From Octopus vulgaris (lineage: Eukaryota): DNA of 64,000 nucleotides. Shown here piece after piece: positions 4,487-41,338 of the stretch. The DNA is taken from assembly GCA_951406725.2 (NCBI GenBank), contig OX597815.1, positions 14,136,001-14,200,000 of the forward strand. The letters are read 5' to 3'. Numbering within the stretch: the first letter of the stretch is position 1; the number at the start of each line of letters is the position of its first letter. The notes beneath the pieces are model-generated. The model was not told the origin of the DNA, did not search any database, and saw nothing but the letters and a program-made list of their open reading frames with translations. A program made the translations under genes and the position numbers.

Positions 4487-5022
4487 AAAAATTTCATCAG
4501 AAAATGTGGCAGCATATTAAAATACCTTTAAGGTTAAAATTATAAACAACTTATAAATAAGGGTTAAAGAAAATTATTTCTATGCCAATATGCTGATAAC
4601 AGACTTTTAAATCGTCAATTTCCACATATTATTTATTCGCTACAGAAAATACGTAGAGCTGAAATCGAAGAAAGCTAGTCAACAGGATTTTTAAAAAAAA
4701 TTCGTTATTTCTATATTGAATCAATTTCGGAATTAATCTCATAATAGATTTTTTCCTCCTCAGTAGAAAATACGAAAATAAATATATGAAATACTTACAT
4801 GCGCCCATAGAAAAAAGCCGAAGCAAAAATCATGAGTACATATAAGTACCCCAGATATATCTAAATATAAAATCCTTTGGTCAGCCTCAGCACACGTGTG
4901 AACTGTTATCCGCATATTGGCATAGAAATAATTTTCTTTAGCCCTTATTTATAAGTTGTTTATAATTCTAACCTTAAAGGTATTTTAATATGCTGCCACA
5001 TTTACTGATGAAGTATTTTTCT
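4485..5022. repeat. Inverted repeat (arms 4485-4602 / 4903-5022) abutting (TA)n, pLTR-like foldback
   Basis: ~118 bp arms are reverse complements with few mismatches; a second short IR pairs ~4880-4907 with ~5107-5133. Confidence 0.8.
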
Positions 5023-18994: not shown

Positions 18995-19415
18995 TTGAGA
19001 TCCAAATTTTAAAAAAAAGACGCCTTCCACATTCTCTCGGATGTTTATAAATTGTTATGACGTCAAAGTAAAGGAAAATTATACATCAGCATCGGATGAT
19101 TTACCCAACTTCACGTTGGGCTCAGCAAACATATTTAAGAGCCTGATTTATTTTGCAAAATGCCTAAAATTCAATGTTGAAGTGGTATATCAAATATGAC
19201 ACATGTGAAAATATGTATAAAACGTATTGTGTGCGTGCGTGTGTGTGTATGTGTGTGTTTATTCGCTTTTTACGCAAGAACGGCTGCGTGATTTGATTCA
19301 CTACTTGGGTTGTATGAATAATTTGACCTCTGATAATTAATAGGGTCGTCATTTTATTACGGAGATGTGCTCGCATAGCGAGTGATTTGATCTGAGAACG
19401 TGTGCTGGAACGAAA

Positions 19416-19722
19416 ACAATTGCAGCGTGGAAGGTGTTTGTAAGCCATTTAAGAAACACACAAAAGCCGTTCGATTCACTTCAACATTTAAGTTTAATTT
19501 GTCAAAATATTTTCGTCGCTAAAATCCGCGACCTGTTCACTGACAAAAATCCGTGCTGCATCCGTGCTGCATCGAGATGCAGCACGGATTTTTGTCAGTG
19601 AACAGGTCGCGAATTTTAGCGACGAAAATATTTTGACAAATTAAACTTAAATGTTGAAGTGAATCGAACGGCTTTTGTGTGTTTCTTAAATGGCTTACAA
19701 ACACCTTCCACGCTGCAATTGT
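19416..19722. repeat. Near-perfect foldback (arms 19416-19562 / 19576-19722)
   Basis: 147 bp arms with one mismatch seen; the 13-nt spacer duplicates the arm end (cgtgctgcatc). Confidence 0.95.
19591..19640 (+). ncRNA. Minimal Type I hammerhead ribozyme motif, G3-C8 core variant (mirror copy 19498-19547, minus)
   Basis: tttgtca-GTGAACA-g-gtcgc(gaatttta)gcgac-GAA-AATATT-T-tgacaaa: 7-bp helix I, 5-bp helix II, palindromic helix III. Confidence 0.7.
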
Positions 19723-19756
19723 CGTCATTCTATTTCTTTGTTTAAAAAAATAATAG

Positions 19757-20899: not shown

Positions 20900-22175
20900 G
20901 CGCTACAGTAGCCAGAGTATCTGAGTTTGATGGGACAAGTGTTGTGCATAAAAAAATACAGTTGCGTACTGGTACTGTCCGAGCATCTCAAGGTACTGAA
21001 CACAAGTATGCAGGCCTGACAAGGAATAGAATCTCCACTGCAATGATACTGGTGTATTCTTCTTCTTAGTTGCTCCTTGAGGCACAGGAAAGACATCATT
21101 GATCAACCTGCTCTTTGCCAAGGTGAGACAAAGGAAGAAGATTGCTCTGGCTGATGCATCCTCTGAAATTGCAGCCACACACCTAACAGGTGGAAGAGCA
21201 GCCCGTTCAACATTCAATCTGTCTCTGAACCTGATCCAAAATGAATCTCCATTATACAACATATCGCAGAATACAGTGTCAGCTAAGCTCCGTACAGATG
21301 CCTAACTCATAGTCTGGGATAAGGCAACAATATCTCATTAGACAGCCTTTGAAGCTCTTAGAACACTACAAGATTTCAGAAACAAAATCAAGGGTGGTGT
21401 CATTCTCCTTGTGGCTGTTAACGTCAGAAAAGCTGTCTGTCACTCCCAGTGGAACAAAGTCAGATGAGCTGAGAGCTTGCATCAAGTCCTCATATATCTG
21501 GCAACATGTCAAGCAGCTTACTCTGATATGAGAGTTCACATTCATGATGACACATTAGCTACAGAGTTCTCCAAGACGCTACTTTACATTGGAAATGGAA
21601 AACTTCCACAGGGTCCAGAAGATAGTCGGTGCCACCTCCCATGTGGCATTATGACTGCCTCCCTTGAAGAACTAAAGAGCAAGGTCTTTCCAAACCTTGC
21701 CACAAACTACAAAAGTCACAAGTGGCTATGTGAAAGAACAATTCTGGCACCAAGGAATGATGCTATAGACAAGCTGAATCTAAGTTTGTTGTCTCAGCTT
21801 CCAGGAGCTGAATGTTCATATAGATCAGTTGACTCTGTCCCTGATCAAGAACAGGCAATGTATTACCCAGTAGAGTTCCTCAATTCTCTTCAACCACTAG
21901 AATTTCCACCACACATTCTGATCATAAACGCAGGTGCTCCCATAATGCTGGGAAGAAAACTTGATGGACCCAGACTCTGCAATCGAAGAAGGTTGGTTGT
22001 TAAAACGTTCATATCCCATGTGTTGGAAGCAGCGATGATTGCAAGCAACATGATGTTGGAGAATGTCTTCATTCCAAGTATTGATCTTTGCAATATCTAT
22101 CAACAAGATCAAGCTTTAAACGTGTTGGGACTTAACTTCCTTCAGCCATGCTTCTCACATGGTAATGCAAAGAAA
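20900..22175 (+). mobile_element. Helitron Pif1-like helicase pseudogene fragment
   Basis: Walker A GTGKT (~21080), ASSEIAATHLTGGRAARSTF, LIVWD, WLCERTILAPRN, YPVEFLNSL..PPH; stops and frameshifts present. Confidence 0.9.
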
Positions 22176-23242
22176 AATACTCACACAACTTTTAATACAA
22201 GTCTATTGCCTTCACACAATCCTTAGGCTTCGTCCTCCCTCTATTCTCTTTTTTGTTTTTCCCTTTCCTTTGATTTTGCAGTGTTTACACCCTTCCACCT
22301 TTTACATCTATTTTCTTCTCGCTTTTCTCGTATTTTCACTTATTCTTTCGTCCTGTTTTAACTTGTTATGACATGTCGGCAGAGCTTGAAATCTGCGTGA
22401 AATAGATAAAATGTGTGTGTGTGTTTGTGTTTGTGTGTGTGTTTGTGTGATTTTGTGTGTGTTTGTATTTGTGTGTGTGGTTGTGTGTATGTTTGTGTCT
22501 GTGTTTGTGTGTGTGTGTTTGTGTGTTTTTGTGTGTGTGTGTTTGTGTTTTTGTGTGCGTGTGTGTGTTTGTGTGTGTGCGTATGTTTGTTAGCTTGACA
22601 TTGCGTCGTTTACATTCCTGTAAGTATGTGAAGAATTCCCAGACGTTCGACACAGGTTCTTATATATACACGTGTATTGTGTGTGTGTGTGTGTGTATTA
22701 CAAACGTGCACATATAGTAATTAGGTTTGTTATGAAGAACGTATGTGAAATCAAAGTGAACATTTTATATAAGTATTGTAAATATTCAAAATATAGCATA
22801 AAAGTTATGAAAACTATACGACCTTACATAATGGCCCATCATATGTTTGCTCCATATCAAATAATCTATGCACTGTATACTGTTGTTTGGTGCCAATTCG
22901 ACAATCATCTGTAATATGCACAAGAGTAAATAGTTATCATATATTATATTATTGTCTATTCGTGTAAACTCTTGTATGTATTTGGAAGGTATTAAAAAAT
23001 AGTTGAGATTTGTAATCGCAGATATATTACTTATATAGAGCAGATAATAATTAAACTTCAGACTAAATCAACGTCAAGTCTGAAGATTTCATCATATTTA
23101 TCATAATATTTATTTTCGCTCCCCAGTTAATATTGATATGACAAGTATCATAAGATTATGGCTAGGCTCAAATATAGGTAGTTGAAGAGACGGATGGTAA
23201 GAATAACAGTGTTTAAGAAATTCTCATTACAGCATGCTGTTA

Positions 23243-39848: not shown

Positions 39849-41333
39849 ATCAGGTTGAATAAAATGTAATCAACGTTTTGAATCATGAAGAATTTGTACC
39901 GGATTTTTGCAGAGTTTTGAATGTTTTTTAGACATATTTTGGCAATTGTGTGACAATACAGGCATAATAGAAATATTAAAATTACTAAGTCTCTATAAAA
40001 GAGATTACGGCAGCGTTTACTGGAAATTAATTGTTATCGCCATATTAATATGGCATTCTTATAGATATAAGAATAATCGCTGCCATGGTCAGCTCCATGA
40101 GGCCACCGCCATCAAGATAGCTATTGATACACGATCTGTATCCATTATAACCTTCGAACAAGGGAGGTCAGCCGCTTCACACTGCCAGTCCGACAGCTAC
40201 AGACGCGTTTCGGGGTATTGCCCCTTGTCAATGTAGCGCAGTCAGACCCGCAGGTGTCGCCACTGACGTCTCTGTTCGAAGGCTTATATTATATTTATGG
40301 CGATAACAATTAAATACAGGCATAGACTTGCCCAAATGCATTAATATATTAACATTGATATTGTTTTCACCGTTGCTCAACTCATTTCGACTTGTTCGTA
40401 TATGTTTTGCGTTGTTCCAAAGGTTGGTAACGTTTATTGAAATGATGCGTTTTTTAAATATTTTCTTTTGCTGCGTTACAGCAGTTATGTAATCGCTGTT
40501 CCCCTTATTTGAAGGGGGCAGCGCTGTTTGAAAAAAAAAACATGACGATTTTCGAAAACTGCTTGCAACCATTTGCAAGCGATCGGAAAATCAAAAGAGA
40601 TCGACAAATGGGTACCACACGATTTGAATGAAAATCAGAAGATGCGCAGATATGAAATTTGCTCGTCGCTTCTTCTCCGTCGCCAGAACCGATCCATTTC
40701 TCGACCATAACTTGCGATGAAAAGCGGATTTTGTACGACAATGAAAAACGTTCTTCGCAGTGGCTAGACCAAAAACCTTCCTTAAATTCGAGCTCTTCAA
40801 AAAGAAGGTTAAGTTGACTGGTGGTGTATTGCTGGACTCATCCACTGTAACTTCTTAGACCTGGAAAGAAAAATTACTGCAAAAACATATTGCCACGAAA
40901 TTGCCAAAATGGACGAAAATCTGCTACGCCTCCGTCCCAGAAGAGGACCAATCATTCTTCATGACACCGCTCGACCACACGTTTCACTAACGACGCTCCA
41001 GGAGTTGAAGGAGCTTTGTTACGAATTTCTTCCCCACCCAGCTTATTCACCCGACCTTTCTCTTACCGACTACCACTTTTTTAAGTATCTCGATGGTTTC
41101 CTGCGAGGGAAGGTGTTCAAAAACAAAACCGATGTTTGAAGTGCGTTCAAAAATTTCATAATCTCCAGAACTCCAGATTTTTATGTTACTGGAATAAACA
41201 AACTTGTAACTCGTTGGCAAAAAATGTGTTGATTTTAATGGTACTTACTTTGATGAATAAAATGTCCGCATTGTTGAAATATTTTGTGATGAATTACATG
41301 TTTTAAAACGTTGCTGCTTACTTTTTACTAACC

Positions 41334-41338
<5 letters not shown>
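39849..41338 (+). mobile_element. Full-length decayed mariner (DD34D-type) transposon
   Basis: Imperfect TIRs tcagg(g)tt..caacgtttt at both ends within TA runs; WVPHDL, TCDEKRILYDN, HDTARPH, HPAYSPDLSLTDYHFF. Confidence 0.9.
40196..40237 (-). ncRNA. Minimal hammerhead ribozyme motif, U3-A8 core variant
   Basis: gctaca-TTGACAA-gggg(caata)cccc-GAA-ACGCGT-C-tgtagc; all helices intact, GUC triplet. Confidence 0.8.

Follow-up and report, generated by a model that had tools for sequence, protein, structure and literature searches.

A 346-bp insert within a mariner element of Octopus vulgaris was predicted, from the 64,000-nucleotide stretch of DNA analysed here (the window), to be a rod-folding, retrozyme-like element carrying a hammerhead ribozyme. 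What kind of element is it, and how did it come to lie where it does? We conclude, with a probability of about 0.68, that the insert is one copy, truncated and inverted at its 5' end, of an abundant retrozyme with a 362-bp unit, and that a Penelope-like element (PLE) likely supplied the reverse transcriptase-endonuclease that placed it. The features of the locus are collected in Table 1.

Table 1. Features of the insert and of its recipient, in window coordinates.
Feature	Position	Strand	Basis or remark
Decayed Tc1/mariner DNA transposon, older recipient	39850..41337	+	TA-flanked; terminal inverted repeats ~80% alike (blast); many genomic copies
Target-site duplication at element 3' end	39955..39966	.	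12-bp direct repeat
~60-nt 'tail', short end (unit 301-304) to long end (unit 361-363)	39965..40024	-	end classes, 66 loci
Direct arm, subfamily A monomer (363 bp), unit positions 38-361	39967..40290	-	register from tandem loci
Extended stem I, long imperfect hairpin tipped by the hammerhead	40149..40284	-	fold z -7.7; pairing conservation
Type I hammerhead	40196..40237	-	pattern scan, conservation, covariation
Inverted arm, 18 nt, unit positions 284-301	40296..40313	+	terminates at fixed 'short' end
Target-site duplication at element 5' end	40313..40324	.	12-bp direct repeat

The nesting of the insert in a mariner was borne out. The recipient contains a Transposase_1 match (40813-41139, E 1.9e-7), and none of the 11 other mariner copies read, the best among 40 scored out of 1,394 candidates, contains the insert, a point on which the original prediction had staked itself. 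In seven of these 11 copies the 12-mer occurs once and the flanks overlap by exactly 12 nt; the remainder differ locally. Because empty mariner sites carry the 12-mer once, the 12-bp direct repeat said to bound the insert is a real target-site duplication (TSD). The first three minus-strand nucleotides of the copy at the element's 3' end are also the continuation of the element (microhomology). The empty sites, together with two further loci that are 100% identical to the direct arm over 324 bp, indicate that the insert is younger than the mariner.

We searched the 2.8-Gb genome (227 contigs) for relatives, and both the dispersed copies and the tandem multimers that had been anticipated were found (111 matches from the best 40 of 1,809 first-look candidates). 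Head-to-tail arrays reach 5.5 units with a ribozyme in each, and these tandem loci set the unit at 363 bp in subfamily A and the family period at 361-363 bp. The unit is therefore not the 346 bp first supposed; the window copy is clipped, its direct arm being 5'-truncated by 37 nt, terminating at the fixed 'long' end and linked to the inverted arm by 5 nt (40291-40295). There are at least three subfamilies (A, B and C), the two others ~82-85% alike and with an equal unit, and intermediates exist. Exact patterns give 213 subfamily A cores, 1,850 ribozyme cores for the family and 2,477 matches of the 3' motif in the genome; every reversed-pattern control gave 0. The copies are spread over many chromosomes and have variable 5' ends.

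The hammerhead is the only strong match in a scan of the whole window. It is of type I and, as predicted, complete on the minus strand with a UUGACAA core and a GUC site. The core reads U3-U-G-A-C7-A8-A9 (40231-40225) and is joined by a 6-bp stem I, a 4-bp stem II (GGGG/CCCC) with a 5-nt loop ending in A and followed by GAAA, and a stem III of 2 bp within a palindromic 6-mer (GAAAC-GC-GUC). Cleavage is predicted between 40202 and 40201. Rfam, at the gathering threshold and at E up to 10, returned no hammerhead and one chance snoRNA match; owing to the U3-A8 pair, the usual CUGANGA descriptor and Rfam overlook the hammerhead. The pair is also, as proposed, a third solution of the 3-8 interaction in the window. 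The others are candidates: a minus-strand C3-G8 type I hammerhead at 4763 (6-bp stem I, long stem II, 4-bp stem III), and a G3-C8 hammerhead-like core in both arms (19540 minus, 19598 plus) of a palindromic high-copy repeat at 19380-19740, which matches 10 other loci gathered here at 77-98%. The window further holds, at 21468-22226, a Pif1 helicase 2B-domain fragment that is probably Helitron-derived.

Conservation was assessed in 249 segments of at least 100 nt, six duplicate loci being left out. U3 is invariant in all 158 segments covering it and A8 in all 160, while core position 7 is C, U or A according to subfamily. The stem III palindrome alternates between ACGCGU and ACAUGU among subfamilies, with both sides changing. 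Since many copies were best matches, their selection accounts for part of the conservation within subfamilies; this bias does not touch the pattern between subfamilies. Across 22 distinct copies 97.8% of cells are paired, and 6 of 37 pairs, lying in stems I and II, show compensatory change (mean expectation 2.9 in shuffles, 4/500 as high), a score that reflects about three subfamily splits rather than 22 independent events and is inflated by relatedness. To judge from these substitution patterns, the ribozyme is under constraint. The final A of loop 2 and the U and C at the stem I internal loop correspond to the contact described for the Schistosoma ribozyme (PMC2632901), and the loop CAAAUA of that ribozyme is found in some subfamilies.

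Self-cleavage of the family RNA is predicted from the motif. The lowest-energy monomer fold mispairs the core, which is a point against easy cleavage. The palindrome permits a dimer helix (computed at -8.9 and -6.0 kcal/mol), and dimerization through stem III is a known route for such ribozymes (PMC4209133). The window copy has a single ribozyme and is therefore unable to free a monomer by itself. In vitro, eight of nine Xenopus retrozyme dimers failed to cleave, according to a 2026 preprint (bioRxiv 10.64898/2026.07.22.740005), and the literature looked at, seen in part, holds no measured rate of a natural U3-A8 ribozyme.

For the 346-nt insert the computed folding energy is -135 kcal/mol (z -8.1; 0/100 shuffles as good). 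The opposite strand also folds strongly (z -7.2), as any long hairpin does. The expected long minus-strand hairpin with the hammerhead at its tip is present and spans 136 nt. The rod, however, does not extend further: folded as a circle the unit gives z -7.6 (A), -3.4 (B) and -7.6 (C) with 25 shuffles each, nearly all of this signal comes from the 136-nt hammerhead arm, and the remainder forms short branched hairpins (z -1.9, -2.1 and -0.5), so that a whole-unit rod was rejected. Of the conservation foreseen across copies, core and hairpin stood and the rod did not. Similarly, the 18-bp inverted repeat lies where it had been placed, but its reading as the outer stem of the monomer fell; it is a 5' inversion in the window copy and does not belong to the monomer fold.

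To describe the insertions while avoiding bias to long copies, we sampled loci by the 3' motif, starting from its first 100 matches on contig 1. These form 67 clusters, of which 66 were analysed; this sample leans young because an exact motif was required. Thirty-nine loci are two-armed and head-to-head, 21 are one-armed, and six complex ones were set aside. In 32 of the 39, one end falls at 357-363 and the other at 290-306; six of the others have one unclassified end, one is long-long and none is short-short. Family insertions thus have two fixed ends about 60 nt apart. The inverted arm ranges from absent to more than 900 nt among copies, and 57 of 60 loci have TATATA no more than 20 nt from an end. 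A readable, non-simple duplication is found in 9 of 117 loci, eight being 11-14 bp, and most others lie in simple repeats. Two loci (L145 and L197) contain short palindromic derivatives of unit ~169-266, separate from the main insertion.

These scars resemble those of PLEs, which characteristically leave partial tandem copies, a 5' arm in inverted orientation, in some cases a tail, and a bias to microsatellite/TA targets (PMC8557442); the tail of an anole PLE has been traced to two internal reverse transcriptase (RT) start sites (PMC11167929). The family shows the same scars, though with a tail of 60 nt against the published 30-40 nt, and the match supports insertion by a PLE enzyme.

By every testable criterion the family is a non-LTR retrozyme. 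It has a type I hammerhead with a Watson-Crick 3-8 pair (U3-A8), a short head-to-tail monomer with a ribozyme in each at the family level, non-coding sequence (no ATG frame in an array exceeds 64 aa) with a GC content of 42%, below 45-50%, and dispersed copies with TSDs of more than 4 bp (12 bp in the window copy). The tandem monomer, lack of an open reading frame, TSD and conserved ribozyme support the retrozyme-like non-coding retroelement originally proposed. In the terms of the 2026 preprint the window copy, being less than one unit, is a 'monomer' and not an 'active' element. Three other classes were rejected: an autonomous PLE, as there is no RT and GIY-YIG open reading frame; the pseudo-LTR (pLTR) of a known local PLE, as there is no homology to the PLE terminal repeats compared; and a MITE, as there are no fixed terminal inverted repeats.

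What RNA was copied can be approached from where the arms stop. The cleavage site is read through in 73 of 77 arms, and the 5' stops are concentrated at unit 81-100 and, by the 3' feet of hairpins, at 161-180 and 321-340. The 5'-end peak at the cut site that a linear cleaved template would give is absent (4 stops in 77 arms at 122-132; the average stop hazard is 3.5% per 11 nt). Together these results rule out the cleaved linear monomer as the main template and, because arms pass the cleavage site, leave a circle or an uncleaved multimer. Parts of the stretch occur in 19 listed runs (14 presumed to be RNA); four yielded fragmented contigs in which ends, strand and circles are unreadable.

The arms of one insertion are also akin. 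Rare variants are common to units of one tandem insertion in 132 of 444 cases (21.5 expected) and to the inverted arms of one insertion in 136 of 471 (20.5 expected). The mean kinship rank against other loci is 0.16 and 0.22, where 0.5 is neutral, and the partner arm is strictly nearest in 68 of 156 tandem and 30 of 164 inverted comparisons. This kinship could stem partly from fine subfamily structure. Adjacent units differ mainly by private changes (271 of 289 are distinct, 14 recur, and 22 sites change in opposite directions). A circle, which is the published hypothesis for animal retrozymes (PMC7229834), accounts simply for read-through, arm kinship and private differences.

The foremost rival, which we regard as unlikely at about one chance in five's worth of credence, dispenses with the circle: the template of a non-autonomous PLE passenger would be a linear multimer, transcribed from long arrays and left uncleaved, with the ribozyme slow or acting at some other step. 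Read-through of the cut site fits it equally well, arrays of 5.5 units exist and stem III is weak. PLEs read through their own ribozyme, and an anole PLE used uncleaved RNA in vitro, cleavage being dispensable (PMC11167929). However, the private unit differences reveal no master array of fixed unit order. Arm survival drops steadily, with 32 of 99 arms exceeding one unit, 7 two units and 1 three units, and the core is preserved across subfamilies.

Either template calls for a helper. Scoring the best 150 of 6,136 candidates for GIY-YIG gave 148 matches, of which 16 lie in 781-aa open frames comprising RT, a CxxxxCxxC linker and GIY-YIG. The linker assigns this protein, on its sequence, to a Neptune-type PLE. 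The element is young, with a unit of ~4.7 kb (loci L063-L071, e.g. G000:C16:20835000-20841000), and the start of the 781-aa frame is overlapped by a frame of 300-480 aa that lies upstream and for which Pfam gave nothing convincing. Its end carries UUGAUAA and ACAUGU, as in the subfamily B core, with a U-rich weak stem I; such U3-A8 cores have 1,264 genome matches. It has two ends ~38 nt apart, one of each in both of the two two-armed loci, and TA targets. We consider it a candidate helper of the retrozyme family.

Sequence comparison did not tie this PLE, or any other examined, to the retrozyme. Blastn of the unit against 50 PLE loci gave no match except an independent neighbouring insertion, and local alignment of the Neptune-type end with the unit scored no better than shuffles. 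Four further PLE loci, the sampled loci being part of the genome's PLE families, showed no homology to the unit, and PLE frames adjoining family copies were inserted separately, in TA arrays. A search with a loose U3-A8 pattern gave 148 matches against 89 in the control, with no PLE frame within 1.5 kb at any of the 30 loci read. No helper with ends matching the unit was found among the PLE loci compared.

Other elements came to light alongside. An older family (L208, L215, L225, L229, L230 and L234), 66-77% alike, has a U3-A8 core and no blastn match to the retrozyme. A third PLE family (L204:3870-3910 and L205:3150-3185) has a minimal hammerhead-like core, CUGUUGA (A6U), in both copies. Locus L072 represents a further young PLE family. 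Its protein is 46% identical to the Neptune-type one, its inverted arm is perfect over 766 bp, and a scan for hammerheads found none in it.

It is improbable that an autonomous PLE escaped the search and that the unit is its pseudo-LTR, the copies being its 5'-truncated ends. All the insertion scars are PLE-like, the comparison covered only 50 PLE loci, and Xenopus retrozymes match pLTRs (2026 preprint). However, in the 66 motif-sampled and 60 best-match loci unit position 1 adjoins, on its upstream side, the preceding unit, an inversion or host DNA, and at no locus an open reading frame common to the copies, and neither the 362-bp head-to-tail period nor the 64-aa limit on its frames suits such an end. 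Least probable of all is that the element is a MITE with 18-bp inverted termini, or a repeat of satellite type that local duplication or unequal crossover has spread: the window copy does have a perfect 18-bp inverted repeat, tandem arrays exist and a crossover model has been put forward for retrozyme arrays (2026 preprint), but one of the inverted repeats lies inside the element, 60 nt short of its end, inverted arms vary among copies from 25 nt to over 900 nt, and the dispersal over chromosomes, fresh 11-14-bp duplications and variable 5' ends speak against it, empty sites and variable inversions ruling out both as the means of dispersal. Crossover may lengthen some arrays.

The retrozyme copied by a PLE enzyme remains our preferred reading. 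Multimeric loci would be transcribed, two ribozymes would pair through the palindromic stem III to cut out a monomer, and a host ligase would close it into a circle. A PLE protein dimer would nick both target strands ~12 nt apart and prime cDNA at two sites on the RNA. Each cDNA arm would run round the template until it stalls, often at a hairpin 3' foot, and the two arms would be joined head to head. In the window copy the long arm would have run for 324 nt before halting and the short arm for 18 nt. The missing sequence link to any helper, and a tail of 60 nt where the Neptune-type PLE has ~38 nt and print gives 30-40 nt, are points against this reading.

More tentatively, and at somewhat under even odds, loci in their thousands may record how a Penelope-type enzyme reverse-transcribes a small circular ribozyme RNA in a rolling, twin-primed manner, with two cDNA arms begun 60 nt apart on one circle and then joined to each other head to head; the U3-A8 lineage would be common to the retrozyme and the young Neptune-type PLE and missed by C3-G8 searches and Rfam, so that animal retrozymes would be undercounted. 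The two together have more than 3,100 U3-A8 cores in the genome. PLEs were named 'strong candidate' movers of animal retrozymes in 2020 (PMC7229834), and the 2026 preprint ties the two by co-occurrence and phylogeny in vertebrates, leaves the mechanism to be elucidated and discusses local amplification. What the octopus offers is a PLE signature in the insertions themselves. Their priming sites are mapped, and one genome contains both young, nearly identical copies and an intact frame for the candidate helper, which opens the helper and circle-template questions to direct test in vitro. Descriptors tied to C3-G8 overlook whole hammerhead families.

In openly readable main texts, Repbase and supplements aside, we found no twin ends, tails or inversions of retrozyme insertions, no U3-A8 retrozyme and no cephalopod retrozyme; 'ribozyme' is absent from the main text of a recent octopus repeat annotation, as far as seen. 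The closest relatives in kind are the metazoan non-LTR retrozymes of coral, mussel and axolotl (PMC7229834 and the 2026 preprint). They share a ~300-400-bp non-coding tandem monomer with GC below 45%, a type I hammerhead whose stems I and II measure 6 and 4 bp and whose stem III is short and palindromic, and dispersal as monomers to multimers with TSDs of more than 4 bp. In contrast to their C3-G8 pair, the octopus family has U3-A8 and a stem I extended to ~50 bp. Its twin fixed ends, tail and 5' inversions are not described in the main text of PMC7229834, in the part seen of which 'inverted' and 'truncat' occur 0 times.

Endonuclease-bearing (EN+) Neptune-type PLEs (PMC8557442; PAc of PMC11167929) share the partial tandems, the inverted 5'-truncated arm, the optional tail from two RT start sites, the (TA)n bias and a hammerhead near the end. 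The octopus family differs in lacking an RT or GIY-YIG frame, in its 60-nt tail, in a canonical rather than minimal ribozyme and in having no sequence match to the PLE ends tested. The U3-A8 pair itself is not new: PMC4209133 reports it, with covariation and in a PLE context, for the ~1,300 minimal hammerheads of the Cercyon PLE of Schistosoma mansoni. The Cercyon motif lacks stem III and is mostly single, whereas the octopus ribozyme possesses the full loops for tertiary contact and is part of a non-coding monomer arranged in tandem. The octopus family is thus a new U3-A8 variant of a kind of retrozyme already known.
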